Source of the DNA: a virus
Lineage: Duplodnaviria; Heunggongvirae; Uroviricota; Caudoviricetes
Virus record (IMG/VR): IMGVR_UViG_3300028532_000077
DNA: 13,618 nt
Strand: one strand, 5' to 3'
Shown here: piece by piece, positions 1-13,558 of the stretch
Layout of the letters: every line of letters begins with the position of its first letter
Position numbering within the stretch: the stretch's first letter is position 1
Notes under the pieces: model-generated
The model's input: only the letters and a program-made list of their open reading frames with translations
Databases searched by the model: none
What the model was told of the DNA's origin: nothing
Position numbers and translations under genes: made by a program

Positions 1-111
1 ACTGCCTGATGTCAGAACAGTATTTTGATGAATTGCCAAGGTTACAATGGCACAAATGCGGCACAGGAGGAAACGTGGTGTATTTAAATATGGGGTAACT
101 CTTTGATTTTA

Positions 112-131
112 ATGGTGCCGATAATAGGAGT
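112..131. repeat. attL-type direct repeat (tRNA 3'-end copy)
   Basis: ATGGTGCCGATAATAGGAGT is identical to 13482-13501; it duplicates the 3'-terminal 19 nt of the tRNA-Thr gene at the other end of the window. Confidence 0.8.
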
Positions 132-273
132 AAAACACTCGATTAATCTCGTGTTAATGCCATCACCTACGACCATTACTAATTGATTGAATCTTATAGA
201 AAAATCATCATTTTCTATGCGTCACAATCAATTTTCACATTACAAACGCTCCGACACTTTAGCCGGAGATTTT

Positions 274-1551
274 ATGAGATACAAGCCTAACCAATACTTA
301 ATCTGTGATTCTTACGGTAACTACTATTTGAGGATCACGTTGCCTGTGTATATGCAGCCCTTTTTTGAAGGAAAAAGGACGTTTGTCAGAAGTCTGCACA
401 CAAGTAATCTTCGTGTTGCACGTAGAAAGCGTGATCAGATTGCAGATGAATACCATTGCTTACGGGAGAGTGTTGCCCCTGTAAACAGCACAATAGAAAA
501 CACGCTGGAACTGTTACGCAGTAAGGCTAAATACGCCAAAACAGCTACCAGAGTGCAAGATACAGCGTCTTCGTGTCCGTCATTGCTTAAAATTCTTGAA
601 ATCTACCTGACAATTAACAGCACGAAGAAGAAGCCAGCCACTTTAGCTAAGGCAAGAAAAGCGGTAGAGATGTTTCTCTCCTACCGTAAAAAGCCTGATA
701 TTGCATTGCAAGATGTAAGCCGCACCACTGTTACAGGCTGGATTGAACACATGCAAAAAACTCTTTCACAACAATCAATTGCAAATTATATCAGCCCAAT
801 GGCCCAGCTATGGGAATTAGCTTCATCACGTTACCACGATGCGCCAGAAAGGGCGCTCTCCCCCTGGCGAGGGCATAGGCTTGATGTGGCACAAAGTAGA
901 GAGAGCTACGAGGCATTTTCTAACAAAGAGCTATTGCAGGTGTTGCAAGTATTTTCCGGTAATTCAGCAGAAAACAAAGAAATGACGGCTTTGTGTCTTA
1001 TCGGTTTATATACAGGTATGCGGATCAATGAGATAGCAAGTCTCACAATAGACGATGTGAAAGAGATCGAAGGTGTGCTGTGTTTTGAAATCACACAGGG
1101 AAAAACGAAAGCTGCGGCACGTCTTGTGCCTGTGCATAGCCTTATCACTCCATTGGTGTTATCTCTTCGTGAAAAGCCTCACAATGGCTTTTTGTTCTAT
1201 CACGCCAGCATTACAGAGCGTGCTGACGGTAAACGCTCTACGTGGCATACACAACGATTTACAAGAGCTAAACGAAAGGCTTTAGGGGAAAAGGGAACAG
1301 AAAGGAAAGTGTTTCATTCTCTGAGACACGGAGTAGCACAGCTTCTTGATCGAAATCAAATTCCAGAGGACCGCATAGCTTTAATTTTGGGCCATCAGCG
1401 CGGCAATACAGAAACATTCCGCACATATAGCAAGAATGCAGCTTCTCCAGTAGAGCTTAAAAAATATATTGAGCTTTTACGCTACCCTGAAATAGAGAAA
1501 GGCTTATCAATCAATAAAAAATCAAATTTAAGGCGTAAAACAACGCCATAG
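274..1551 (+). CDS. int: Tyrosine recombinase / phage-type integrase
   Basis: C-terminal catalytic signature visible in translation: LYTGMRINE (Arg), HSLRH (His-x-x-Arg), LGHQRGNTETFRTY (His ... Tyr nucleophile). N-terminus YGNYYLRITLPVY...GKRTFVRSL resembles the arm-binding domain of phage integrases. Start chosen at ATG 274 with GGAG 5 nt upstream; ORF is open from TTG 187, ATG 217 also possible. Confidence 0.9.
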   Translation: MRYKPNQYLICDSYGNYYLRITLPVYMQPFFEGKRTFVRSLHTSNLRVARRKRDQIADEYHCLRESVAPVNSTIENTLELLRSKAKYAKTATRVQDTASSCPSLLKILEIYLTINSTKKKPATLAKARKAVEMFLSYRKKPDIALQDVSRTTVTGWIEHMQKTLSQQSIANYISPMAQLWELASSRYHDAPERALSPWRGHRLDVAQSRESYEAFSNKELLQVLQVFSGNSAENKEMTALCLIGLYTGMRINEIASLTIDDVKEIEGVLCFEITQGKTKAAARLVPVHSLITPLVLSLREKPHNGFLFYHASITERADGKRSTWHTQRFTRAKRKALGEKGTERKVFHSLRHGVAQLLDRNQIPEDRIALILGHQRGNTETFRTYSKNAASPVELKKYIELLRYPEIEKGLSINKKSNLRRKTTP

Positions 1552-1561
1552 ACGTAATAAG

Positions 1562-1594
1562 GAGGCTTCAACATAGATTGGTAGCCTCTTTTAT
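1562..1594 (+). terminator. Putative weak intrinsic terminator downstream of int
   Basis: GAGGCT (1562-1567) / AGCCTC (1583-1588) inverted repeat followed by TTTTAT; stem is short and loop is 15 nt. Confidence 0.3.
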
Positions 1595-1625
1595 GATTAT
1601 CTCGCTACATCGTTCTTTATAGGGA

Positions 1626-2282
1626 TTATTTCACTTCTCCGTCATACGTCGGAAGGGTGTCTTTAGTGGTGCTGGCTGTTCCTGCATTGGTTGGCACTCG
1701 GCTTTTTACCTGTCCGCCTGTGCTCTTAGGTGATGCGGTCTTTATAGCAATAGCGTTAGTAGTTGCATAACTCACTAATCTTATCTGTTCGAACTGCAAA
1801 TCAAACTGTAAAGCTGATTCTGTTTTATATTCGTAGTCAATGCCTGTCAGAATCATATTATCAAACGTCTTATGCTCTGTGCTTACAATAATAGGCTGTC
1901 TGGCATTCATTATTTCATCAAGATAAGCAATAGCCTGTGAACACCTGTTACCGTTCACCCCTGCACTTGATAGCATATCACCACGTAATGCTAATGGTGT
2001 TTCTGTAATAATGCCTGAAAGCATAAGTTTATTATTCTTGATCCTGACATTATCAGATACATCATTACCATCCTGCACAGGATACGATGTAACATCGGCA
2101 GAACGTGAAACCTTAGTTGCCGGAACAGCGTCAAAAGTAATAGCTTTATAACTGGCTATCGTTGATGCATTTTCGTTATTCAGGTTGCTACATATAATGG
2201 CAAATCCGTTATCAGATTTAACCTTGCTGTTAGATGTATTAATGTTAGATGTGCTGTTGATCTGACTTTCTTTGATAGCCAT
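1626..2282 (-). CDS. Hypothetical protein (218 aa), last gene of the virion-like operon; possible minor structural protein
   Basis: Long ORF with AAGGA Shine-Dalgarno about 10 nt upstream of ATG; lies 73 nt downstream of the 633-aa gene on the same strand; Ser/Thr/Asn-rich sequence with no recognisable catalytic motif. Confidence 0.7.
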   Translation of the reverse strand: MAIKESQINSTSNINTSNSKVKSDNGFAIICSNLNNENASTIASYKAITFDAVPATKVSRSADVTSYPVQDGNDVSDNVRIKNNKLMLSGIITETPLALRGDMLSSAGVNGNRCSQAIAYLDEIMNARQPIIVSTEHKTFDNMILTGIDYEYKTESALQFDLQFEQIRLVSYATTNAIAIKTASPKSTGGQVKSRVPTNAGTASTTKDTLPTYDGEVK

Positions 2283-2355
2283 TTATATTAATCCTTGTGT
2301 AATGAGCGGAAAGCAATAAATATTGCCCCCGCTTTATTATTAGTTATCGTTAAAC

Positions 2356-4257
2356 TTAGTTAACGCTACTCTGTCCTGACAACGTGCTAAGAATCAGATT
2401 CGAACTAAACTGATTGTTGTTCGCTCTGATCTCAGTGCGGATTAAATCCTGAAAGCCGGGACCGTTAGGGATGACGTTAACAGAGATCATATCACTCGGC
2501 ACCGTAACCTGTGCATTCACGTTAACAGGAGTTGCGTATTGACGTTGTAGGCTTACAGTCGGCTGATAGGCTTCTGCTTTACGTGCAACAAGGGTTGATC
2601 CGTAGCTGTTAGCATTGCCATTAATTAAATCAGTCCACCACCCTGGAACGCCGGACTGTGTTTCCTCACCGCGCACAATACGCCCTACATCTTTCGTATC
2701 GAGTCCAGTTGCATAACGAATACCTTCATTGATAATCGTTGATGGCGACCATTCCCCATCTGTAACAGCGTCCATAACCTTTTGTGTCTCAGGTCTGTTA
2801 TCATTCTCACCACGGCTAAGATGTTTATTAATCCAGCTTGTGATTTGATTCCCGTAAGAAGTCATAGAGGTCAGTAATACAGCGCCTTGTTTAGCCAAAT
2901 CCCCGAACGATGCACCAACACCATAAGCTGCATTCTGTAAGGCTTTGCTTTCTTCCGGTTTGAGTGCTGGCATGTTGGCTATGCCATCAAAGAAGCCCAA
3001 AATAGCCTGATTCGATAGTCCATCTGTCAGACGGTCAAAGGCTGTAGCTGTCTTGTTAGCTGCGCGATATTGCTCTTTCTGTGCTTCTGTCAGTAGCTGC
3101 CCGTTGTTTTCCATATCAACCATCGTTTTACGGAACTCTTCCCCATCACGGGAAAACATCTTGAGATAATGGCTGGCATCGTCTGCTAATGGTTCGATCA
3201 GGGATATGATGGCTTCTTTAGTCATTCCTCGGCGTTCACCTTCTCTCACCACGTCTTGCAGGAGTTGCAGCGGTCGCCCCTGGTAGGAAGCTATCTTATC
3301 TTTGTTCCATGCAAAGGCATTCTGAATATCATTTAATGATCCTTCCCCGCCTCGCCACTCTTTTTTCTTACTATCCCATTCAGCAGTTCGGCTTTGATGA
3401 CCAATGCGTTCGTTTAAGTCTTTGATATTGTCAGTGGTCTTGTCCACGCTTGCACTTGATACACCGTTTGCCCTCCCCCAATTAACCATTGCAGCCACCT
3501 GGTTGGAGTCTGCGCCTACCAGATCGCTCATCTTCTGCAATTCCATACGTTCACGGGCTTTTTCCATTCCAGCAGATACAGCCATACTTCCTAAGCCAAC
3601 GGCAGCGCCGCCGATAATGCCACCAACACCGCCCATCATTAACGCGCCACCGCCGCTAACACCTTCTTTGTGGAGCTTCTTAGAAGTAACTGGATATACA
3701 CCCCCAGCGGCAGCATTACGACGCGTAGCAGCGGCTGCGGCTCGTCTTTCTAATGTGATGCGGTCACGGATCAGGGCATTCATCTTCGCTTGCGATATAG
3801 CGCCGGATTCATAGAGGCGGGTTTGTTCCTTAATGTAACGTAGAGCATCGTGATATTTCTTAATATCCATCCCTTCGCCATAGCGGGAATTGTTCTTGAT
3901 GCCTTGTAACTGGCGATATGATGCAAGGCGCTTGATCTCTGCCTTTTCAGCAATTGAGGCTTGTTTAGCCTGTGCTTTAGCGAGGTTTTTAGCTTCCTGT
4001 AGCTTCTGTTTAGTGCTGGCTTTAGATGCCTGTGTCTCAGATTTAACAGCCCGCTTAACATGCTGATCATGCTGGCGCTGAATCTCTTTTCCCAGCCTCT
4101 GTAAATCTTTCTGACGTGCTGCCGCCACTTGCACAGGTTTGATCCCCTGCATCTTCTTTTGTAGCTTATCCACTTCATTCTTAGCTTTCTGTAAGCTCTT
4201 GAAATCAGTGGTAAATGTCACAACATTACTAATTCGTGAGGCGGTAATTTCTAACAT
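2356..4257 (-). CDS. Coiled-coil / glycine-zipper protein (633 aa), tape-measure-like or ejection-protein-like
   Basis: N-terminal ~170 aa are K/Q/A/E-rich heptad-like (LQKAKNEVDKLQKK..., KQKLQEAKNLAKAQAKQ); central hydrophobic Gly-rich segment GGGALMMGGVGGIIGGAAVGLGSMAVSAGM as seen in phage tape-measure and pilot/ejection proteins; no enzymatic motif recognised. Confidence 0.75.
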   Translation of the reverse strand: MLEITASRISNVVTFTTDFKSLQKAKNEVDKLQKKMQGIKPVQVAAARQKDLQRLGKEIQRQHDQHVKRAVKSETQASKASTKQKLQEAKNLAKAQAKQASIAEKAEIKRLASYRQLQGIKNNSRYGEGMDIKKYHDALRYIKEQTRLYESGAISQAKMNALIRDRITLERRAAAAATRRNAAAGGVYPVTSKKLHKEGVSGGGALMMGGVGGIIGGAAVGLGSMAVSAGMEKARERMELQKMSDLVGADSNQVAAMVNWGRANGVSSASVDKTTDNIKDLNERIGHQSRTAEWDSKKKEWRGGEGSLNDIQNAFAWNKDKIASYQGRPLQLLQDVVREGERRGMTKEAIISLIEPLADDASHYLKMFSRDGEEFRKTMVDMENNGQLLTEAQKEQYRAANKTATAFDRLTDGLSNQAILGFFDGIANMPALKPEESKALQNAAYGVGASFGDLAKQGAVLLTSMTSYGNQITSWINKHLSRGENDNRPETQKVMDAVTDGEWSPSTIINEGIRYATGLDTKDVGRIVRGEETQSGVPGWWTDLINGNANSYGSTLVARKAEAYQPTVSLQRQYATPVNVNAQVTVPSDMISVNVIPNGPGFQDLIRTEIRANNNQFSSNLILSTLSGQSSVN

Positions 4258-4291
4258 GTTAATTGTTTCCCTGTATTATGATTATTGTTTG

Positions 4292-4489
4292 TTATTGTTT
4301 TTTAGAGCAATAATATTGGATTGCCTCAAAAGTGCTGCACCCAGTCTGAAACACACGCTGCCGCACATTATTTGCATCAATTGAAAGCATTCTGCATAAG
4401 GCACTGACATTGATTATTGAGTCATCGCTAATAGCTGCCAGTTCTTTTACAGCCTTAAGAATAAAGGATTGTGGGTTTTCTGTATTCAT
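4292..4489 (-). CDS. Small hypothetical protein (65 aa)
   Basis: ORF between the 343-aa and 633-aa genes on the same strand; weak purine-rich RBS (GAGAGAAAACC); no motif recognised. Confidence 0.45.
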   Translation of the reverse strand: MNTENPQSFILKAVKELAAISDDSIINVSALCRMLSIDANNVRQRVFQTGCSTFEAIQYYCSKKQ

Positions 4490-4640
4490 TGGTTTTCTCT
4501 CACATATATATTTTTATTTGGGTTTGTAGACAGTAGAAAAACAAAAAGGGCAAAGAGATTCGTTACTGTATTTGCGCCTACAGGTTAGTTAATCCCTTTA
4601 CCCTTATTGCCCCGATGGGGAATCGTCTATTAACGCTTTA

Positions 4641-5672
4641 TTACGCAGCAGATCCGAAGATGATAGCTTGCGGAATGTTGTTTACTGGCAGATAAGATGT
4701 CTCAGTAACCACAGATGGGAATTGGAATTCATCCTTGATTAGATATTGGTGATGCAACACGGCATCTTGACCTAACTCAGCATGACGCACACCAACGCCG
4801 CTATGAAGCTGGTAACACTGTGCCGCTTTATCCATTACCGGAACAATTGCGAAACCGTTCTCTCCGATGTGAGCAACAATCTCAGGAAACATTGACACAT
4901 CAATAACAGTGATCCCACCAATCTGGAAAGAGTCATAGGCTGGGTTAGAATCAACCATACGGGTAAACAGGGCCGTAGCACTCGCATCACCTGCATATTT
5001 CACCATGTCACTGATCAGCGGGTTAGATGACAAACCATCAGCAGCAGCGCCAGCAGCAAAGATAATTACACCAGTTCGCTTTGCAGCAAGACCAGACCCC
5101 AGCTTTTCACTCTGTAAGCGCACCGCTTTACGAATAGCAAGGAACGGGTTAACAGTAGTCGATGCAAAGTCGATAGCGGGTACCGTGGTTTTAGCCTGAC
5201 CGTCGAGGAAGTCGAGATCACCTTGTCCGGCATATTCAGATTCAACTTTCAGTCCCAGCAGCGCGGTAATCAGATCCACTTCAACACGGTTTGCGTGTGA
5301 ACGGTAATGAGCCTCAGAGAAATCATTAACCGCTACCAGCATAGCATCAGAACGGTTTGGATATTGGCGGCTGTATTGTTCCAGGTCACGAGAAGTAACA
5401 GCGTTAATACTGCCGACGTGTTTCATCTGGAAAAGTTTGTTTGACCATTCCTGACGTTTAGAAGCGTTCCAGTCGCTTTGAGCGTAAGGCGAGGTTTCCC
5501 CGGCTACCTGCACAAACTGCTCAATCAGGTCGGTAAGAAGAATGCTGTTTTCTGTATGATATTGCACATCGAACAGATCGAGATTAGTAATCAGGGTATT
5601 AAGTGCATTCTCATAAGCAAATGGAGTTACTACCGCAGTATTAACGCCAAAATATGTTGATAAATCATTCAT
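4641..5672 (-). CDS. Putative major capsid-like protein (343 aa)
   Basis: Size and position match the major capsid gene of lambda-like head modules (about 340 aa, immediately after an about 120-aa gene); AAGGAAAATAAT RBS; mixed alpha/beta composition with no nucleotide-binding or catalytic motif. Assignment is from context only. Confidence 0.6.
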   Translation of the reverse strand: MNDLSTYFGVNTAVVTPFAYENALNTLITNLDLFDVQYHTENSILLTDLIEQFVQVAGETSPYAQSDWNASKRQEWSNKLFQMKHVGSINAVTSRDLEQYSRQYPNRSDAMLVAVNDFSEAHYRSHANRVEVDLITALLGLKVESEYAGQGDLDFLDGQAKTTVPAIDFASTTVNPFLAIRKAVRLQSEKLGSGLAAKRTGVIIFAAGAAADGLSSNPLISDMVKYAGDASATALFTRMVDSNPAYDSFQIGGITVIDVSMFPEIVAHIGENGFAIVPVMDKAAQCYQLHSGVGVRHAELGQDAVLHHQYLIKDEFQFPSVVTETSYLPVNNIPQAIIFGSAA

Positions 5673-5686
5673 TATTATTTTCCTTG

Positions 5687-6070
5687 TTAAGTCGTAGGGA
5701 TCGCAAGTTCTTCATAACCAGCAATTACAAAGCCGAGAGATTGCAGTTTTGCAATAACACTTGCCTTTTCCATGCTGTTAAATTCAATCCCATCTTCAGC
5801 CAGAATAACGAAAGTAGGATGTGCAACCACTACGCTTTCCTGTCCTTCATAAGCCGGTTCAACTACTACGTGAGCAATATCAGATGCGGTTGTTGCTTTG
5901 GTGCCATCGGCTTTCAGCAAAGCCCCGACAATAAGATCGTCAGTGAGAGGTGAAGCCAGTTTGACGAGGCGATCTTGCAGCACTGGATCAGCAGCGTAAG
6001 CTACTACCTTACAGCGTGAACGGGAGTTATCCGCATTCACTGCTTTTAATTTTCCATATGGGTTAGCCAT
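5687..6070 (-). CDS. Putative head decoration / scaffold-like protein (127 aa)
   Basis: Stop lies 14 nt from the start of the 343-aa gene; nearly identical AAGGAAAATAAT RBS context; size and position resemble gpD-type decoration proteins upstream of major capsid genes. Context only. Confidence 0.5.
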   Translation of the reverse strand: MANPYGKLKAVNADNSRSRCKVVAYAADPVLQDRLVKLASPLTDDLIVGALLKADGTKATTASDIAHVVVEPAYEGQESVVVAHPTFVILAEDGIEFNSMEKASVIAKLQSLGFVIAGYEELAIPTT

Positions 6071-6074
6071 AAGA

Positions 6075-6272
6075 TTATTTTCCTTTCAGTTGTTTAATTT
6101 TAGATTTAAGGGCATCAGCAAGACTAACCGCATCAGCCGATTTAAATAATTGAGCAGTGGTAGAACGAAGACTTTCGGGAGTAACTCCCAACAGTGCGGC
6201 AACCTTAATGAGGTTTTCATCACTAACAATCATCGTTTCCCCGTCTTTGCTGATAATCATTTCTTGTTTCAT
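6075..6272 (-). CDS. Small hypothetical protein (65 aa from ATG 6272; ORF open to 6314)
   Basis: First gene of the leftward virion-like operon; AGGAA 8 nt upstream of ATG 6272; stop is 4 nt before the next start; the longer ORF start at 6314 would run into an upstream hairpin. Confidence 0.55.
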   Translation of the reverse strand: MKQEMIISKDGETMIVSDENLIKVAALLGVTPESLRSTTAQLFKSADAVSLADALKSKIKQLKGK

Positions 6273-7266
6273 AAATAACGTTCCTGTTAGTGCCAGACAA
6301 ATAAAAAGCCCCAATGCCGTAAGAGGTTAATTCTGACCAGCAAAGGGGCTTTAACGTGCGGGCAATTACATAATTGATAAGTTAAACTATAAGAGGATTA
6401 AACATATCAGCAAATACACTTTTTAAATATACTTGATGATATGCTTAAAGAGTGAATATCAGACCTTAGAAAGGAAGGCTCTTAGGAGTTTGCCACTGGA
6501 ATCACTAAGATCTGATATTCTGGGTGCGGTGGCTAACCGCTGCCTGTTTTTGCTGTGGATGCAACAAAGTAAGGCTTTAAGGAATCACTATTCCAATTCT
6601 CATCTACTCACAGATCAAATTTTAATAGGATTAACTACACCAACAATAATCTACCGTTTCAGAAAAAGCGTTTTTACAACCAAAGATTATAGATTTGCAG
6701 TCTATAAAACCCGTTTTGCTATCAATATTTCCAAAGGTTATTGCACAATTCTTAGCTAAACTCTCTACTTGCGGCTAACGCTACGCAGATGATAGTTTTT
6801 TGACAACAACTTAATAGATTATTCTGTTACTAACTTCTGTCATTAAATAAGAGTTTAATGATGTTAGTAAATAGTTATAAAATATAACTATCAGTGTAAG
6901 GCTCTTTAATGTTTTCGGACAAAATAAGGAGCTTTAGGATAAGCATAGATGAAAAATAAGAGCGGGAAGGGCAAGGAGATAACACCTACCCGCTTTTATC
7001 AAAATTAAGCACAATGCCTAACAACATTCATCAACACAACGTAGAAACAATCAACAATCAAAGAGGGAGTTATGATTATTCTAAAACTTCTTGAGAGATG
7101 GAAGGTAATATTTGTTAGAGGTTAATGCCACTCAACCCTTGAGGCTATCACCTTCCATATGCAGGGATTTATGACAGTAGAAGGATTAACACCAGTCAAA
7201 ACCTTTTTATCTACCCCTAATATCATTATATAATGAAATCGCTATAAATGCAAATGATTTTCATTG

Positions 7267-7575
7267 TCATTTAGAGAAAATAGCACTTTTTGCTAAATCA
7301 TCTACTAATTGCTGAATCTCTTCACTTGCAGCCTTTAACGTGCTGGCGGTGTCTGTGATGGTTTGAGTACACAGCCTGACATCGTCCTTAGATAGCTCTA
7401 AATCGCTCACCAGAGAGATGAAATCGTCAAGGCTTACATTCACCTTCATTAAGCTACTAACGCATTGAGAGAGCGTGTAATCGCATAAATCTGAATAGGC
7501 TTGATTGATACGTGTCTGTAGGGCGATCATCCGATCCGAAAGAGTGTCCATAACTTCCAGAATGTTGTCTGTCAT
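7267..7575 (-). CDS. Hypothetical small acidic helical protein (102 aa)
   Basis: ATG overlaps the stop of the upstream ORF (ATGA coupling at 7572-7575); AGGAG upstream; no motif recognised. Confidence 0.65.
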   Translation of the reverse strand: MTDNILEVMDTLSDRMIALQTRINQAYSDLCDYTLSQCVSSLMKVNVSLDDFISLVSDLELSKDDVRLCTQTITDTASTLKAASEEIQQLVDDLAKSAIFSK

Positions 7576-7844
7576 TGTGCAATCTCTCCTTGATCTGCTG
7601 ATTCCATCTCTTGCTGAATCTGTTTAGCCTTGTTTAGTGCAATCTGTAGCGGTATACGATAGGTTGCAATGTCATCCAGCACATCATCAAGCAAGGCAAA
7701 ATCATTTTCTTCTTTTGCTCGTTCAGCCAGTGAAATAAACACTTCTGCAAGTTGTTTTGCTTCTTTAAAAAATGTTGTTTCTAATAGTTGATAGTTAATC
7801 ATTATTTTTCCTTTTTCGATTATTTTCATTGGGCGCTTATACAT
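7572..7844 (-). CDS. Hypothetical small helical protein (90 aa; likely true start at 7802, 76 aa)
   Basis: In-frame ATG at 7802 has a good AAGGA RBS at 7-nt spacing, whereas the ATG at 7844 has GGGAG only 1 nt away; translationally coupled to the downstream 102-aa ORF. Confidence 0.65.
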   Translation of the reverse strand: MYKRPMKIIEKGKIMINYQLLETTFFKEAKQLAEVFISLAERAKEENDFALLDDVLDDIATYRIPLQIALNKAKQIQQEMESADQGEIAQ

Positions 7845-7859
7845 ACTCCCATCATTTTA

Positions 7860-8243
7860 TTAGTTAGAACGTTTGTTAGAAGCTAATGTATCTTCTAAAT
7901 GAGCCATCAGATCGACTTCCGATGCACCACCTACACAATTATTGAAAGCGTTAAATCCCAAAAAATGATGATAGGAGCTAAACCCTAAAAGTTGCCAACG
8001 CTTCAGAGTGCCATCAGAAATTATTGTTTGTTTTCTTGTTCTTGGGCGAAAGTAAACGCCTGGCATTGACTGGATTATTTCTAATTCTTTATTACTTAAT
8101 TCAGGGGATTCTATTTCAAGAATAAATATTATCTCTTCCCCTGGAATTTCATTATTGGTATGTGTCGGTGGACGTTGTCTTTTTGAATTGAAATTACTGT
8201 TTTTTTCAATACGTTTTAAGTTATTCTTTTTCTTTCTTCCCAT
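7860..8243 (-). CDS. Hypothetical protein with basic N-terminus (127 aa)
   Basis: GAGGG RBS 5 nt upstream of ATG; N-terminus MGRKKKNNLKRIEKNSNFNSKRQR is strongly basic (possible nucleic-acid binding); no catalytic motif recognised. Confidence 0.65.
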   Translation of the reverse strand: MGRKKKNNLKRIEKNSNFNSKRQRPPTHTNNEIPGEEIIFILEIESPELSNKELEIIQSMPGVYFRPRTRKQTIISDGTLKRWQLLGFSSYHHFLGFNAFNNCVGGASEVDLMAHLEDTLASNKRSN

Positions 8244-8378
8244 TTTCCCTCTTTTTATGTGGATTATAAAAACTTAATGCCATAGTTACGATGAATATCG
8301 CCATAAATGCACTTGCCATATGTATTGCCCGATCTGTTGTTACTGATTGTTTGTGATGTTATAAATCATTTATTCTCC

Positions 8379-9047
8379 TTAGAATGGTATTGAATCGTAT
8401 ATTTCACTTTTTTCTCTTAGAGATATTATCAGATCGTGAAAAGCCTGTTTCTCAAGATAGATATTCTTTGAATCTAATGCTCGTTTTACAAAATCTTCTG
8501 TTTCTTCGTGCGGTGGTTTCTTCTTATCAAGGGAAAGAAGCCAAGTAAAAATTTCGGGCCGCTCAGGGAACTCTGATTCCTGTGTTTCTTCTTCAATGAT
8601 GATTTCTGAAACATTCAATATTTCATTAGATTCGTCTTCTTTCTCAGAAGGATCAGGTAGTGATGACTCTCCAGGGGGAGTAATATGTGCATCTGTGAAT
8701 GGTAATGCTTTATAGAGTGATGTTTGCCCGTCCCGAGCCTCTACAGAAAGAACTCCCATATCAACAAACATATTTATAATATTGCGAACCTGGCGATCAC
8801 TAACCATTCCAATATTAGATAATGTTTTTTGAGTGGCGTAACATTCTTGCCCTTGTTCATTGAATCCAGCTATATAGCTATAGATTTCAACGGCTGGCAG
8901 TGTAGCGGTGTATTCATTACCTGACGGTGAGAACCACTTTTTAAACATCTTCAACCACTGCTCAACGACTACATATTTTTGTTTACCATCTTTCTGATTT
9001 AGACATTTGGCTTTCGCTTCGGCAATTGTTTTGATATTTTTGATCAT
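8379..9047 (-). CDS. Winged-HTH DNA-binding protein (222 aa), candidate replication initiator or regulator
   Basis: Strong AGGAGG RBS before ATG 9047; segment YATQKTLSNIGMVSDRQVRNIINMFVDMGVLSVEARDGQTSLY has the pattern of a winged helix-turn-helix; acidic C-terminal tail (EDESNEILNVSEIIIEEETQESE). Confidence 0.75.
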   Translation of the reverse strand: MIKNIKTIAEAKAKCLNQKDGKQKYVVVEQWLKMFKKWFSPSGNEYTATLPAVEIYSYIAGFNEQGQECYATQKTLSNIGMVSDRQVRNIINMFVDMGVLSVEARDGQTSLYKALPFTDAHITPPGESSLPDPSEKEDESNEILNVSEIIIEEETQESEFPERPEIFTWLLSLDKKKPPHEETEDFVKRALDSKNIYLEKQAFHDLIISLREKSEIYDSIPF

Positions 9048-9171
9048 TTAGTTCCTCCTTTGTAAGGACTGTAATTAGTAATTCATTAACAAGTTTTGGA
9101 ATTGATTTCCCTTCTGCCTTTGCACGATTTAACAACGCGTTATAAGTTGCAGAATCAAAATTAATATTCAT
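8983..9171 (-). CDS. Ribbon-helix-helix (CopG/Arc-like) DNA-binding protein (62 aa)
   Basis: MNINFDSATYNALLNRAKAEGKSIPKLVNELLITVL fits the beta-strand then two-helix RHH pattern; GGAGAAGGAG RBS; 3' end overlaps the start of the wHTH gene by 65 nt in another frame. Confidence 0.65.
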   Translation of the reverse strand: MNINFDSATYNALLNRAKAEGKSIPKLVNELLITVLTKEELNDQKYQNNCRSESQMSKSERW

Positions 9172-9194
9172 TTGGTTTTCTCCTTCTCCTGTTA

Positions 9195-9371
9195 TTATTC
9201 TTTCTCTGCTTTACGCAGTTCATCAATAATTTTTAGTGCATCGTCAAAACATTTTTCACGCTCTGGATAACCACAGCGTCGCGCTGTGTTCCTATTCATT
9301 CTTACCCTAAAGCGGTTGATCTCACCACGTTTCCAGGCTTCAACTACATCTTGAGAAGTGAAATACTTCAC
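9195..9371 (-). CDS. Small hypothetical protein (58 aa, GTG start), first gene of the regulatory operon; not in the supplied ORF track
   Basis: GTG at 9371..9369 preceded by a perfect AGGAGG at about 8 nt; in-frame to TAA at 9197..9195; basic protein (…RFRVRMNRNTARRCGYPERE…). Confidence 0.5.
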   Translation of the reverse strand: MKYFTSQDVVEAWKRGEINRFRVRMNRNTARRCGYPEREKCFDDALKIIDELRKAEKE

Positions 9372-9494
9372 TAATTAACCTCCTATTCTATTTGGTTAAA
9401 AGAAAAAGACACCTTGCAAGCCTCTTGGGCTTCAAAGTGCGGTGCATTGGTTTAATTATTTAGAGGATAGGAATGTTTTCCTGCCCCTAATATT

Positions 9495-9523
9495 ACTTTA
9501 CCATAACTAAAGGCTTTTGTCAA
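9495..9523 (-). promoter_or_regulatory. Candidate sigma70 promoter for the leftward regulatory operon
   Basis: On the minus strand: TTGACA (9523..9518), 17-bp spacer, TAAAGT (9500..9495); about 120 nt upstream of the GTG at 9371. Confidence 0.4.
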
Positions 9524-9787
9524 CCCCCACCCATAAAATATTGATCATTTTTCAGTATGTTATGATTTTGCTTAGCAATTCGTGCTCTTCTGTGTGATGC
9601 TATTCTTCCTTATTCTCTAAAACGCGTTCTAACGAGGTTTTGATAAAAACAATACATTCCCTTATGTAATGACAGTTTAGCTCGCCTACGGCTTGATTTA
9701 AGCGGTAGAAACTTATTTAACCTTCAACTACTAAAACCATTCTTTTTTGTTTGTTGTTGGTTGTTGTCTGTGTCTATGTGCTAACAT

Positions 9788-10060
9788 CGCTAACGCGTAG
9801 CACACAAGGTTATTGCACTCGTCAGAGTATTGCACAATAGATTTTCTCTTAAATAGATTGATGATCGTTAGATTGGCGTAAGCCTCATCAATGGAACTAT
9901 TGAAGCGCACAGCGCATAGACACTAACAACCATTCGCTTACGCTCAGGTTATTGCACAAGTAAATTTCAATCGTTAGATGGTAGTTAGTTAATTATCGTT
10001 CTGCGCACAGCGCAAGACTATTTAGCCTTACGCAAGCCGTAGGCTATTTGCACATAGTAG
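9788..10060. repeat. Modular imperfect tandem duplication (about 100-bp period) with recurring short motifs
   Basis: TCGTTAGAT at 9865 and 9971; GCGCACAGCGCA at 9905 and 10003; GGTTATTGCAC at 9808 and 9947 with variants at 9827 and 10043; GCTAACGC at 9788. Confidence 0.6.
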
Positions 10061-10200
10061 ATTACATATTCGTTGTGAGCGGCATTAGCGAACATAGATC
10101 TACTAACTAACATCAACAAACAAAAACTATGTGTTATGACAAGCAGTCTAACGACTAACACTCTAACTTGTGCAAGGTTCTGGCGAATGCCAATAGATTA

Positions 10201-10235
10201 AGGGATAGTCGTTAGACTCCCTAACGGGTATCCCT
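10201..10235. repeat. Nested perfect inverted repeat (stem-loop)
   Basis: AGGGATA gt CGTTAG actcc CTAACG gg TATCCCT: outer 7-bp and inner 6-bp perfect stems; followed by about 60 bp of AT-rich DNA (10236-10295). Confidence 0.6.
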
Positions 10236-10295
10236 ATAATTATTCTTATAAAGATAAAAAAGAATTATATTATATAGTTTAATTGTAGTATTGTC

Positions 10296-10394
10296 GGAAA
10301 TCATTTCCTAGGTGATAGGAACTCATTTCCTAGGTAGGTAGGAAACCACTTCCACGGTTATTTCCTAAATAGATCGGAACTCATTTCCCAGGTG
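10296..10394. repeat. Iteron-like array: four 19-bp direct repeats, each with internal dyad symmetry
   Basis: GGAAATCATTTCCTAGGTG (10296), GGAACTCATTTCCTAGGTA (10318), GGAAACCACTTCCACGGTT (10341), GGAACTCATTTCCCAGGTG (10376); spacing 22, 23 and 35 bp; each copy contains GGAA-N5-TTCC. Confidence 0.7.
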
Positions 10395-10860
10395 TTATTT
10401 ATACTTATCGGGTATCAGACTTGATAGGGGTAGCTCACAGTGACCTACCGTTACATCCAATCATCACATAACATCTGTGCAATGATCTTCTAAAAGTGTT
10501 TCTTGCTACCAAAATTAAACATCTAAAACAGGCTTAAATTCAATGTAATTGATGATTAATCCCTGTGTAATTCCTACGTAAAAATCCAATGAAAAGTAGC
10601 TTAAAAAGTGCAATGTTAGCTTTCTTCACTTTTGCGTCATCATCAGCAAAGCCTTATGTTATGCGGCATATAGCGCATCACTGCAAAATTGTTGCTCAAT
10701 AAACGTTCTATCATTTGTCGAACAAGTTCTTTCACGTGTTGAAAATTTATGTTTAAATTTGCTTTCAATCTTTAATGTGCAATCACTATCAACATAAAAA
10801 TAAAAAACCTTCTATTATATTTCATAGCATACAAAAGTCAATAGAAGCCCTCTCGTGCTC

Positions 10861-11244
10861 CTACGTAAAAAATCCACCACTTTTCCCCTTATACATCAAC
10901 TCAAGGCGTTCTATGTGTTCCTTAGTGCATATTACGATTATTATGTTAAATGGATTTTGGACTATATTTTGACCTGCACCCGCATAAACACTGGTTTCAT
11001 CGCTTACAGCCCTTGTGAGACGTGGTGCTGTTTCTAGCATCTGATCCGACATAAAACCGATCATTCTCGTGTTTAGTGAAAGTTTAGTGAGATACATTAC
11101 AGAAAGGCTTTCTGTGTAATGATTTAATAGGTAAAAACGATGTTGATTACGCAAGAAAATTCCTTGCTGATATTTGGGGATTCTGGATTTTCCAGATCGG
11201 GGGGCGGTGAAAATCGCGTTAAGCACTTCTCGCAATCTAGCCAT
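10861..11244 (-). CDS. Questionable ORF (127 aa)
   Basis: Open frame only; no purine-rich RBS before the ATG (CCCTTCCC context); translation has no recognisable features. Listed because nothing else occupies this interval. Confidence 0.2.
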   Translation of the reverse strand: MARLREVLNAIFTAPRSGKSRIPKYQQGIFLRNQHRFYLLNHYTESLSVMYLTKLSLNTRMIGFMSDQMLETAPRLTRAVSDETSVYAGAGQNIVQNPFNIIIVICTKEHIERLELMYKGKSGGFFT

Positions 11245-11260
11245 AAGGGAAGGGATAAAG

Positions 11261-11300
11261 GTATTTAGATGTATTTATAGCTATTTATGGCTATTTATTT
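11261..11300. repeat. Four tandem 10-bp AT-rich repeats (helical phasing)
   Basis: GTATTTAGAT / GTATTTATAG / CTATTTATGG / CTATTTATTT in exact 10-bp register. Confidence 0.5.
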
Positions 11301-11460
11301 TTTATTTACCTTAATTTAAAAATAGCCTTATAAATCAATAAGATACAGGACTATCTGTTTATATTTTGATCAATTAAATCAAGTTTAATACCCTTAAACC
11401 ACCTGAAAATAACCTTAAATACCCCAATAATTAATTTTAACGATTCCTGTGCTCTCTCCT

Positions 11461-11531
11461 ACTTTGCAAAAAGGCAAAAAAGCCCATAGAGGCACAAAAA
11501 TATTAAAACCAATAACTCAATAATGCCTCTA
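11461..11531 (-). terminator. Putative terminator downstream of the 183-aa gene
   Basis: Perfect 8-bp inverted repeat TAGAGGCA (11487-11494) / TGCCTCTA (11524-11531); on the minus strand the hairpin is followed by a U-rich tract (GGGCUUUUUUGCCUUUUUGC). The 29-nt loop is long, so only moderate support. Confidence 0.35.
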
Positions 11532-11549
11532 CAAGAGCTTCTCTAACTG

Positions 11550-12101
11550 TTATTTTTGATTGAGCTTACATCGATCCCATTGTTCTGTCGTTCTTGTGAT
11601 ACGATCGCTTATTGCAAAATTTAATAGCCAAGAATCATAAGCATAAACCTTGCTTTTATCATCTGCCATCATAAACTTGCCGTTAGCATTCAGTTTTGGC
11701 GATATCAAATATGTTCCATTTAATCTGTTAGCCTTGAAGCTATCTGCATATAAAGTTACTTGTGCGTATCCCTGAACACGTAATGCCCCTAAACGTCCGT
11801 TTTCGATTGATGCAATAGAGTATTGGCAAAGATAATTTTTGGCAGCAGGAGTCGTTTTCACTCCTTCAGTTTTTCGTGAATTATTTGATTGCGAGCTTCG
11901 AATAGAGGATGAAGGATAAGAGTATGAATGATTTTTATAAGATGAAGGGGCATAAGAGCCAATCCGGCACGTCTTACCAACAGCTATACACGAGTTACCA
12001 CAAGGTATTCCTTTTTTGCAGTTTTTAGCAACTGCGGTAGAAGTTCCCCCTACAAACAACGTTGTAAAAATCATCATCCTCACAAATGCAGACCTGCGCA
12101 T
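11550..12101 (-). CDS. Secreted Cys-motif protein of unknown function (183 aa)
   Basis: Strong GGGAGG RBS 5 nt before ATG; N-terminal signal peptide (MRRSAFVRMMIFTTLFVGGTSTAVA, Ala-x-Ala cleavage context); mature N-terminus C-KKGIP-C-GNS-C-IAVGKT-C has four spaced cysteines; then a Ser/Tyr-rich linker. Confidence 0.8.
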   Translation of the reverse strand: MRRSAFVRMMIFTTLFVGGTSTAVAKNCKKGIPCGNSCIAVGKTCRIGSYAPSSYKNHSYSYPSSSIRSSQSNNSRKTEGVKTTPAAKNYLCQYSIASIENGRLGALRVQGYAQVTLYADSFKANRLNGTYLISPKLNANGKFMMADDKSKVYAYDSWLLNFAISDRITRTTEQWDRCKLNQK

Positions 12102-12390
12102 ATAACCTCCCTTTTTAGATTATTCTTATGCTATACACTTGCTTAAAAAAATAAAAGTGCCCTCTAACCTTTATCGTTCTCCATCACAATTTGAGAAGTA
12201 AGAGCAGCAACCTCAAGCGATGATCACGTTTGCGCCGATTTCAGAGAAAAAGACAGTAACTGAACTCACTATGAAGGCTAAACGTATCTTTACACTTGAT
12301 GAAAACGTTCAAAAAACAACCTAACCCCAAAATTCAACAAATAACAACATATTGTTTTTAAAAGAAAATTAAATCTACATCAAATATTGG

Positions 12391-12419
12391 TTGACGTAGA
12401 TTGAGGTGAATAGTAGACT
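12391..12419 (+). promoter_or_regulatory. Candidate sigma70 promoter for the small plus-strand ORF
   Basis: TTGACG (12391-12396), 17-bp spacer, TAGACT (12414-12419). Confidence 0.35.
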
Positions 12420-12495
12420 ATTAGGGTAAATTGCCATTATTGCAACATCATTTAATGCATGTTCTAATCCTCCTATCCCAAAACCGGAGGAAGTT

Positions 12496-12654
12496 ATGCA
12501 TTTACTTTCAAAACATCTTCACACTATTCACTTTCTCGTTATTGATGTATTCATTGTGGCTATTAGTTACCGCATTTGCATCGCTTCCAGTGAAGAGATG
12601 GACGCTGTTGCAATTATTGCTCAAGCAATGGCGATGTTAACTAAACGACTTTAA
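12496..12654 (+). CDS. Small protein (52 aa) with a hydrophobic core
   Basis: ATG 12496 has GGAGG 5 nt upstream; encodes MHLLSKHLHTIHFLVIDVFIVAISYRICIASSEEMDAVAIIAQAMAMLTKRL; the SD can pair with TCCTCC 13 nt upstream (12468-12473). This frame differs from the 12431..12640 ORF in the supplied track. Confidence 0.4.
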   Translation: MHLLSKHLHTIHFLVIDVFIVAISYRICIASSEEMDAVAIIAQAMAMLTKRL

Positions 12655-12668
12655 TAATTTCACTATCA

Positions 12669-12710
12669 GGCGCATAAACACATCTTTGATCGCTGGATGT
12701 GTTATGCGCC
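12669..12710. terminator. Strong hairpin between convergent small genes (candidate bidirectional terminator)
   Basis: GGCGCATAAACACATC (12669-12684) pairs with GATGTGTTATGCGCC (12696-12710): about 15 bp with one bulge and an 11-nt loop. No long T-run on either side, so termination efficiency is uncertain. Confidence 0.5.
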
Positions 12711-12720
12711 TACTGGTGAT

Positions 12721-12873
12721 TCAATCCTTAAGCCATTTCAACTCACTAAGGAGTTTTCTTTCTTCGTTCTCTCTCTGTTTACGCTCTAGCCAGGCTTTTC
12801 CTTCTGGCGTAGACAGGAACTTACGAGCGTGAATCTTGCGGTTATTACGTTTGATAGCTGCAATGTTTTTCAT
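12721..12873 (-). CDS. Small basic protein (50 aa); not in the supplied ORF track
   Basis: ATG at 12873..12871 with AGAGG 7 nt upstream; encodes MKNIAAIKRNNRKIHARKFLSTPEGKAWLERKQRENEERKLLSELKWLKD; stop TGA at 12723..12721. Confidence 0.4.
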   Translation of the reverse strand: MKNIAAIKRNNRKIHARKFLSTPEGKAWLERKQRENEERKLLSELKWLKD

Positions 12874-13481
12874 CGTGTGCCTCTGTATTCATATGAAAAT
12901 TAACAAGTTACATACTACACAGGGAGACTACGCATAAAACACAATACAAGTAAAGATACATTTTCAAGACAATAGGAGCCATAAAGCGCCTTTGATGGGC
13001 TACCCCAAAAAATAAGCGCCGTAGGCGTATCCACTAAAAAGGGCTTTTTCACAAAAGCTATGAAGTCTTAGCAGTTCTTCTCTTATCAGGCACCCGTTGT
13101 ACTCCGGTGGACGAAACCGTGCTAGAGCTTGATTCTTTCCCGATCAAGTTAGGTTTTGAAGAGGTGGGCTTTAATCCACTATGCACTTAAAACTACTCTT
13201 CCCATCATTTAGCCTGTTTATCCTCTGCAACGTCATCTCGACGTGTAGCATCATTGGACACCGCGCCAGGTGTGGAACATCTTGCTAAGAGTTTTGGTAG
13301 AAGGTTTAGAGACGGTGGCACGTCTTCCAGCTTCAAAGGAACTTGTTACGAGGTTGAGCCTGGGAACTACTCGCCCATACGTGTTACACTACCAAAGCCC
13401 ATAACAACGTATAGGCGTTTGTAAGTGATAACAGAAGATACAATTTCTTAGAGAAGCTAAGCTAAGTTATTGATTTTCTTG

Positions 13482-13501
13482 ATGGTGCCGATAATAGGAG
13501 T
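13482..13501. repeat. attR-type direct repeat overlapping the tRNA-Thr 3' end
   Basis: Identical to 112-131. Confidence 0.8.
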
Positions 13502-13558
13502 CGAACCTACGACCTTCGCATTACGAATGCGCTGCTCTACCAACTGAGCTATGCCGGC
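13483..13558 (-). tRNA. tRNA-Thr (anticodon CGU)
   Basis: Reverse complement is GCCGGCATAGCTCAGTTGGTAGAGCAGCGCATTCGTAATGCGAAGGTCGTAGGTTCGACTCCTATTATCGGCACCA: 76-nt cloverleaf with D-stem GCTC/GAGC, anticodon loop TTCGTAA (CGT), T-stem GTAGG/CCTAT with TTCGACT loop, encoded CCA. Confidence 0.93.

Follow-up and report, generated by a model that had tools for sequence, protein, structure and literature searches.

The closest described counterparts of the locus examined here are the type I toxin-antitoxin systems hok/sok, tisB/istR-1, zorO/orzO, ibs/sib and ldr/rdl, in which a peptide of about 50 amino acids (aa) with one hydrophobic helix is expressed from its own promoter behind a long leader that sequesters the Shine-Dalgarno (SD) sequence, with a stable 3' stem-loop and a location on a mobile element. 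Phages and their satellites also carry "morons", and P2 and P4-like elements have cargo or defence hotspots. In satellite P4, immunity relies on the CI RNA, a processing product of the early operon's untranslated leader, and lambda N is an example of the arginine-rich RNA-binding peptides. Our study concerned a stretch of 13,618 nucleotides (IMG/VR record IMGVR_UViG_3300028532_000077), referred to as the window, and within it two small convergent genes of 52 and 50 aa at the tRNA-proximal end of a phage-related island of about 13.4 kb in Escherichia coli DNA. A first-pass annotation made from the sequence had proposed that the two form a small toxin-antidote or regulatory pair stabilising the island. 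The 52-aa gene and its surroundings share the type I traits listed above; however, this cassette belongs to none of the type I sequence families and has no conserved promoter for an antisense or adjacent small RNA, and the second gene of the proposed pair encodes a protein, which is not the type I manner.

The findings suggested that the locus is the junction of two independent island modules and not a two-gene system; we put the probability of this reading, as regards the architecture and the two genes being independent, at about 70%. The first module would run from thrW on the minus strand and consist of a structured RNA of about 410 nt followed by the 50-aa gene, expressed from what appears to be its own promoter; it would mark the attachment site (att)-proximal end of an island family of Enterobacteriaceae, with variable cargo starting right after it. 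The second would be a self-contained cassette (12221-12720) sitting in the cargo slot in the opposite orientation, made up of a sigma-70 promoter, a leader of about 70 nt that occludes the SD and the start codon, and the 52-aa gene, whose product would combine a transmembrane-like segment with an amphipathic C-terminal helix. We infer that the cassette transcript ends at the stem-loop between the genes, which would insulate it against the 50-aa transcript coming from the other side. Translation of the peptide would stay low until processing, temperature or an RNA partner opens the leader. The most likely site of action of the peptide would be the inner membrane, where it would serve as an accessory factor of a toxin-like or exclusion type.

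The distribution of the two genes carried this reading. BLAST matches to the locus broke at about 12621-12634 and at 12729. The island of avian pathogenic E. coli (APEC) O1 had the 50-aa gene with neither the cassette nor the stem-loop, and cassettes of a second allele type (type B, in an island at a tRNA-Gly gene) had no 50-aa gene nearby. Among loci that were found through the structured RNA and carry the 50-aa gene, a convergent 52-aa gene was present in 12 of 39 from IMG/VR and 19 of 105 from metagenomes, leaving 113 of 144 (~78%) in which it was missing, and about one third of the 52-aa genes were located away from the 50-aa gene. The taxonomic ranges also differed, with the 50-aa gene in Enterobacteriaceae and the 52-aa gene in Escherichia only. 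The genes of a type II-like pair are co-transcribed and co-inherited; these two converge and are neither. Because each gene occurs independently of the other, a toxin-antidote pair was not supported, and the regulatory pair suggested alongside it fared no better: the genes belong to separable modules with different distributions, and neither product matched a toxin family.

As the first-pass annotation had supposed, both tiny ORFs (open reading frames) are genuine genes, the 52-aa frame keeping its length with more synonymous than nonsynonymous difference (pS > pN, as proportions) and the 50-aa frame showing purifying selection. Both had been described as missing from the supplied gene list; RefSeq does hold counterparts, annotated as hypothetical (WP_000550449.1 and WP_000788776.1), in a locus of 99.8% identity. 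DNA comparison resolved three divergent alleles of the 52-aa gene in E. coli, of which type A is that of the window, and protein searches with the 52-aa sequence returned only three clusters. Type B (~80% DNA identity, 55 aa) lies in the tRNA-Gly island beside yecR, and type C (38% protein identity, 52 aa) was found in 53 genomes; both are unannotated. Of the 5426 complete E. coli genomes, 276 had type A or type B; the type A region is present, for instance, in E. coli O104:H4 2011C-3493. The Prokaryotic Genome Annotation Pipeline (PGAP) left a type B or C allele unannotated in about 157 complete genomes, for example at 6194-6361 in locus L002 and 5876-6034 in L004, while type A was annotated. 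All three types shared the start, the frame and a length of 52-55 codons, even at 38% aa identity; pS was 0.35 and pN 0.22 between A and B, and pS was 0.79 and pN 0.37 between A and C.

The hydrophobic core attributed to the 52-aa protein was borne out by the Kyte-Doolittle scale. A hydrophobic window of transmembrane grade occupied approximately residues 11-30 in each allele, and the best 19-residue window scored 1.9-2.1 in every type, compared with 1.67 for Ldr and 2.52 for Hok. The family also has a conserved amphipathic C-terminus, D/ExxxxAIIxxxxAxLTKxL, and a single-sequence AlphaFold2 model showed two helices at a pLDDT (predicted local distance difference test) of 80. No family was matched at E <= 1 in Pfam (type A) or in NCBIfam (types A, B and C), PADLOC gave no match, and the PHROG match was weak (E = 0.025) and to a family with no assigned function. 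Profiles of known type I toxin families in Pfam and NCBIfam (Hok/Gef, Ldr, TisB, Ibs, ShoB, Zor, DinQ and others) gave no significant match. The family was found in Escherichia only, by protein search and by a scan of genome contigs that returned two Escherichia loci. From these features the peptide is possibly type-I-toxin-like in role. The gene would represent an orphan family of predicted leader-controlled small membrane peptides; roughly 6% of complete E. coli genomes have it, annotation is missing for two of the three allele types, and it illustrates how such small genes escape notice.

The leader gave the strongest support for the earlier structural observation, since its hairpin was kept across alleles with different sequences. 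The SD and the complementary TCCTCC upstream were both present as described, with a spacing of 12 nt and not the 13 reported. Folding of the 5' leader, which had been proposed as a check, placed both the SD and the AUG inside a hairpin in the minimum free energy (MFE) structure; this putative fold had -17.3 kcal/mol and z = -3.15, and 0 of 200 shuffled sequences were as stable. An SD-containing hairpin was predicted in 5 of the 5 allele variants folded, the whole leaders ranging from -13.5 to -18.2 kcal/mol. The masking pairs were CCUCC/GGAGG in type A, CUUCC/GGAGG with a G-U pair in a type A variant and CCCCCU/AGGGGG in type B; type C used a different helix, AUACUUU.CUAUUG/CAAUAG.GGGGUAU, from which a type C variant departed by pair-preserving changes only. 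These predictions indicated that an SD-sequestering hairpin is maintained through pair-preserving changes in three divergent alleles. The hairpin is real and typical of type I toxin mRNAs, as had been argued, but it is not unique to them. The promoter proposed ahead of the gene is at chance level when taken alone, with 5 promoter-like sites in the region against 5.9 expected, yet it was kept as TTGACR-17-TARACT in all three allele types (TTGACA-17-TAAACT in type C). Its conservation suggests that TTGACG-17-TAGACT works as a promoter.

The cassette of about 500 bp fills the island's variable cargo slot. Its left edge is a 32-bp block that was identical in types A, B and C despite differing DNA to its left, either a serine-recombinase gene or a 183-aa minus-strand ORF; the block occurs once in the window, with no second or inverted copy there, and might be a recombination site. 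As a separate observation, many genomes had the block about 60 bp downstream of a gene for a serine recombinase of 179-183 aa of the resolvase/invertase type (L015 245-796, L002 5302-5853, L004 5010-5549). A 34-aa ORF at 12220-12324 was rejected as a gene, as it has no SD and only its first 11 codons are conserved, coinciding with the invariant block.

At the other end of the cassette, the strong stem-loop noted between the ORFs was confirmed (-32.4 kcal/mol, z = -7.6). No U tract follows it on either strand (the downstream sequence is UACUGGUGAUUC on the plus and UGAUAGUGAAAU on the minus strand), and a terminator consensus scan did not list it. Lacking the U tract, it does not fit the definition of an intrinsic (Rho-independent) terminator; it is probably a 3'-end, terminator or insulator element of the cassette, and may also serve stability. 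The stem-loop accompanied cassettes of types A and C, both facing the 50-aa gene, and was absent from type B cassettes, where a co-directional gene comes next, and from cassette-less islands such as that of APEC O1. In a type A variant, one C-G pair of the stem-loop was changed to U-G on the plus strand, a hint that folding takes place in the plus-strand RNA.

The other module is built on a structured RNA. The ORF-free stretch from thrW to the 50-aa gene was conserved between E. coli and Klebsiella islands with wholly different cargo, and also in Enterobacter and Raoultella. RNAalifold, run on 15 sequences of less than 97% identity, gave a consensus of 75 pairs, long-range helices included, 31 of them with compensatory double changes. 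Paired alignment cells reached 97.8%, against 31-44% when the partners were slid by 1-3 columns, and the covariation score was 0.353 against about 0.05, a value that 0 of 500 shuffles reached. The structure was derived from the alignment on which it was tested, which favours it somewhat, but the gap and the double changes far exceed that effect. The excess of G-U over A-C cells (87 against 8) indicated that the folded strand is the minus strand of the window, on which thrW and the 50-aa gene also run. A -10-like element (TATCAC, 13430-13425) and a terminator-like hairpin with a T6 tail (13007-13027) suggest that the RNA starts near 13418 and ends near 13007; the nhmmer match of the RNA profile in the window spans 12959-13444.

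Rfam 15 held no family matching this RNA at E <= 5 for the window or at E <= 10 for a Klebsiella copy and an IMG/VR copy; apart from the tRNA, its gathering and E-value modes yielded noise. No description of the RNA was found in the literature, so that it is undescribed as far as we searched. A 25-nt motif of the RNA was found in 40 IMG/VR contigs, and a second motif in at least 120 metagenome stretches, many of them labelled human gut. A gene of the 50-aa family stood at a fixed distance from the RNA in 160 of the 171 loci with enough downstream sequence (~94%), a few copies being frameshifted. Of the two, the RNA is more constant; the 50-aa gene mostly accompanies it but need not. Like the P4 leader RNA, it is a long untranslated structured RNA at a main transcription start, followed by small ORFs; this likeness is a lead only, and unlike the P4 RNA it matched neither the C4/CI RNA family nor any other in Rfam.

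Variation within the RNA was also recorded. Relative to Klebsiella-type copies, the E. coli RNA had an insertion of about 44 nt at 13153-13196 with its own small hairpin (GTGG...CCAC), and locus L025 had a separate expansion of about 60 nt in another helix; these look like variable expansion segments. A subfamily with a different 3' end and no 50-aa gene was seen in metagenome loci (L068, L108, L125, L153, L171 and L186; also L078, L085 and L167). In a few E. coli-type copies, unrelated DNA began directly after ...ATGGCTCCTATTG, indicating that the variable slot can begin there. The nhmmer profile found no homologue in the related islands L009-L012. A weak match (E = 4e-6) to its 3' half lay beside tRNA-Gly in L016 and L017 (2039-2189, minus strand) and may be a distant variant of the RNA; L002, of the same island type, had none.

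The 50-aa protein is highly basic, as had been stated. Its homologues formed 57 protein clusters in E. coli, Shigella, Klebsiella, Enterobacter and Raoultella, with a near-invariant core, KRNNRKIHARKFLxTPEGKAWL. Over the 25-codon core, pS was 0.77 and pN 0.017 between E. coli and Klebsiella, and this codon comparison indicated that the gene is under strong purifying selection. AlphaFold2 modelled a two-helix hairpin (pLDDT 90.5), for which Foldseek found no fold match in the PDB. Pfam, PHROGs, NCBIfam and PADLOC gave no usable family. A profile search of 1.84 billion representatives (50% clustering) returned 43 family sequences together with low-complexity matches in long proteins, and no link to a larger domain. 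The promoter-like site upstream of the gene had a counterpart, TTTACT-18-TAGCCT, at the aligned position in the Klebsiella homologue, which is consistent with the gene having its own promoter. The protein is a putative nucleic-acid-binding regulatory factor of the island. Like lambda N, it is short, very basic and helical, and its gene comes first in a transcription unit of the element, beside a structured RNA and with a strong hairpin after it; this likeness too is a lead only, and searches with the protein by sequence and by fold gave no match.

In every genus, the 50-aa gene was preceded by 600-800 nt without ORFs beside an att site, often thrW. The genes that followed it were unrelated among islands: in Klebsiella, Enterobacter and Raoultella they encoded a type II restriction-modification enzyme, an nSTAND/AAA ATPase, Abi_C, DUF2971, helix-turn-helix (HTH) proteins and others, and the slot (L005-L008, L019-L027) also held HTH/DUF3944 and YecR genes, depending on the strain. 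Resolvase or short integrase genes lay slightly beyond the slot genes. These unrelated genes indicated a variable cargo slot after the 50-aa gene, filled in the window by the 52-aa cassette, and the slot looks like a phage-defence or cargo hotspot. To our knowledge, a slot bounded by a structured RNA and a 50-aa gene has not been described.

That the RNA and the 50-aa protein form an undescribed RNA or RNA-protein module, marking the att-proximal end and the border of the cargo/defence slot in a widespread family of phage-related, tRNA-integrating islands of E. coli, Klebsiella, Enterobacter and Raoultella, with the 52-aa cassette as one cargo of many and possibly a new orphan type I toxin family, is an idea to which we give an even chance. 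A new structured RNA of about 400 nt is unusual in such well-studied bacteria, and it borders a slot that often contains phage-defence genes. The link between the RNA and the 50-aa gene raises the question of island regulation or mobilisation; if the module is as proposed, possible roles include RNA-based immunity or regulation, excision and packaging.

Several points weigh against the reading of two independent modules. The ratio of nonsynonymous to synonymous substitution (dN/dS) in the 52-aa gene was about 0.55 between types A and B, moderately below 1, which fits a weakly constrained peptide and is no strong proof of function. The leader hairpins of some alleles had modest z-scores (-1.3 to -2.8), and the leader covariation comes from three independent allele lineages only. 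Other genes directly followed the RNA in 11 of the 171 loci, which lacked the 50-aa gene, and this indicated that the RNA is not strictly dependent on the protein. Finally, we infer from sequence the promoters, where the transcripts end and that a hairpin with no U tract behind it could serve as a terminator; the same holds for membrane action and any toxicity of the peptide, and for what the RNA and the 50-aa protein do.

Within the cassette, what the 52-aa peptide does could be explained in more than one way. It may be a non-toxic "moron" membrane protein, for example one for superinfection exclusion or a modulator of a host membrane protein, with the leader as a conditional switch such as an RNA thermometer and with no antitoxin; we regard this as possible but on the unlikely side. 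This proposal fits a cassette that has a promoter of its own, is oppositely oriented and sits in the cargo slot; also in line with it are the G-U-rich or short SD pairings and the moderate stability of the whole leader, the failure to find a conserved antisense promoter, and the often phage-defence-related cargo nearby in related islands. The cassette resembles morons and satellite hotspots in being self-contained, with its own promoter and 3' hairpin and opposite in orientation to the genes of the element, in a slot that in related islands holds restriction-modification, Abi_C, STAND-type ATPase and other genes. The proposal is weakened by the lack of homology to characterised exclusion or regulatory small proteins, and it leaves the minus-strand terminator-like element of types A and B unexplained.

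That element has a place in a second proposal, under which the 52-aa cassette alone would be a complete type I toxin-antitoxin system, a membrane toxin with a cis-antisense RNA (promoter at 12640-12613, end at 12402-12372) that blocks translation or triggers decay, and with no involvement of the 50-aa gene. The peptide is small and hydrophobic, the SD-occluding leader was kept across alleles, and mobile-island cargo slots are places where addiction and abortive-infection modules are common. The best promoter consensus match of the region lies antisense within the 52-aa ORF, and a 12-bp inverted repeat just past the mRNA 5' end reads on the minus strand as a terminator-like hairpin with a T tail; the repeat is kept in types A and B, and in type B nothing converges on the cassette. 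However, the -35 of the antisense site was not kept in type B, type C had neither an equivalent site nor the minus-strand terminator, and no antisense promoter conserved across alleles A, B and C was found. A cis-antisense RNA is possible in the window, judging from these elements, though not as a conserved family feature, and the antisense promoter of type A, not being conserved, could not be taken to prove a type I system. Promoter-like sites were no commoner than in shuffled sequence, no known type I toxin family matched, and the repeat, which overlaps the -35 hexamer of the 52-aa promoter, could equally be an operator as an antisense-transcript terminator. We consider this proposal doubtful.

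The two proteins acting together, as the island-stabilising toxin-antidote or mutually regulating pair of the first-pass annotation, is far less credible. In its favour, the genes converge side by side in 170 complete E. coli genomes and in 31 independently found loci, and one protein is hydrophobic and the other basic. This is contradicted by the wide occurrence of each gene without the other, the 50-aa gene in several genera and the 52-aa gene in Escherichia only, by a convergent arrangement that precludes co-transcription, by the tie of the 50-aa gene to the upstream RNA instead, and by the absence of both proteins from toxin and antitoxin families. Chance frames with fortuitous hairpins deserve hardly any credence, since, for all that the ORFs are short and the DNA AT-rich, that PGAP left the type B and C copies unannotated and that the 52-aa sequence gave three protein clusters only, the 52-aa frame and length were kept to 38% aa identity with pS above pN, the 50-aa core was nearly free of nonsynonymous difference, and the two folds had z-scores far from those of shuffled sequence.

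Table 1. Positions of features of the small-gene locus and its island in the window.
Feature	Position	Strand	Basis or remark
52-aa ORF, allele type A	12496-12654	+	ATG start
50-aa basic ORF	12721-12873	-	15 lysine plus arginine residues, net charge +8
Candidate sigma-70-like promoter of 52-aa gene, TTGACG-17-TAGACT	12391-12419	+	sequence match, kept in types B and C
SD, GGAGGA	12486-12491	+	4 nt ahead of ATG
Anti-SD, TCCTCC	12468-12473	+	12 nt 5' of SD
Predicted leader hairpin burying SD and AUG (12496)	12454-12502	+	MFE fold
12-bp inverted repeat over -35 hexamer	12372-12402		minus strand reads as terminator-like hairpin with T-rich tail
Antisense promoter-like site in 3' end of 52-aa ORF, TTAACA-16-AATAAT	12613-12640	-	10 of 12 consensus matches
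Invariant 32-bp block TGATCACGTnTGCGCCGATTTCAGAnAAAAAG, left edge of small-ORF cassette	12221-12252		sequence comparison
Strong stem-loop between the convergent genes	12660-12719		17-bp inner and 6-bp outer stem
Promoter-like site of 50-aa gene, TTTACT-18-TAGTCT	12925-12954	-	read from sequence
Conserved structured RNA, ~410 nt (roughly 13418 to 13007)	13007-13444	-	covariation
tRNA-Thr(CGU), thrW, integration site	13483-13558	-	
att direct repeat	13479-13506 and 109-136		tRNA 3' part repeated at 109-136
Tyrosine integrase gene	187-1551	+	

The island is integrated in thrW, as the tRNA-Thr(CGU) gene lies at its end and the 3' part of the tRNA is repeated at the other (Table 1). In strain PK6, the 99.8% identical locus is flanked by paoD/yagU and thrW-proA, and positions 12300-12950 had at least a partial match in 551 of 5426 complete E. 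coli genomes. No DNA match was found in phage GenBank records, and a DNA search of a plasmid collection gave three records, two of which are actually chromosomes. Literature searches covering the RefSeq accessions, thrW islands and satellites, and comparable small-protein systems found no description of either small gene. EcCIMP1, a phage-inducible chromosomal island at the same thrW site, is a different element from the island of the window.

The integrase has DUF6538 and SAM-like domains, and the island family is not P4-like; all other sizeable island genes are on the minus strand. Their products include Dit-like, tape-measure and HTH_36 replication-initiator-like proteins, and a 343-aa protein that resembles a major-head family weakly (PHROG E = 1.3e-4) and matches nothing in Pfam; its counterparts of about 348 aa in L009-L012 had no Pfam match either. 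Islands of this family (109-13506 in the window; L009-L012) measure 13-14 kb and encode tape-measure and Dit-like proteins, and neither a terminase nor a portal was recognised in them. IMG/VR classes members of the family as viral contigs. The family may be a satellite-like or defective element, and it matched no described family.

A stretch of 1.8 kb (9048-10860) had no ORF of at least 70 aa and contained four 22-nt direct repeats (10292-10393), with more short repeats at 9807-9988; beside the HTH_36 initiator-like gene, this is a possible replication origin. At the equivalent position, related islands (L002, L003) had unannotated gaps of 2-2.8 kb. Elsewhere, repeat D3, a resemblance of the hairpin flank to 10964-11004, was set aside as chance. 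The 183-aa ORF at 11550-12101 (minus strand) has a signal-peptide-like N-terminus, matched two PHROGs with no assigned function (phrog_2578 and phrog_14768), and occupies the usual place of the serine recombinase gene in the island of the window and in L018.

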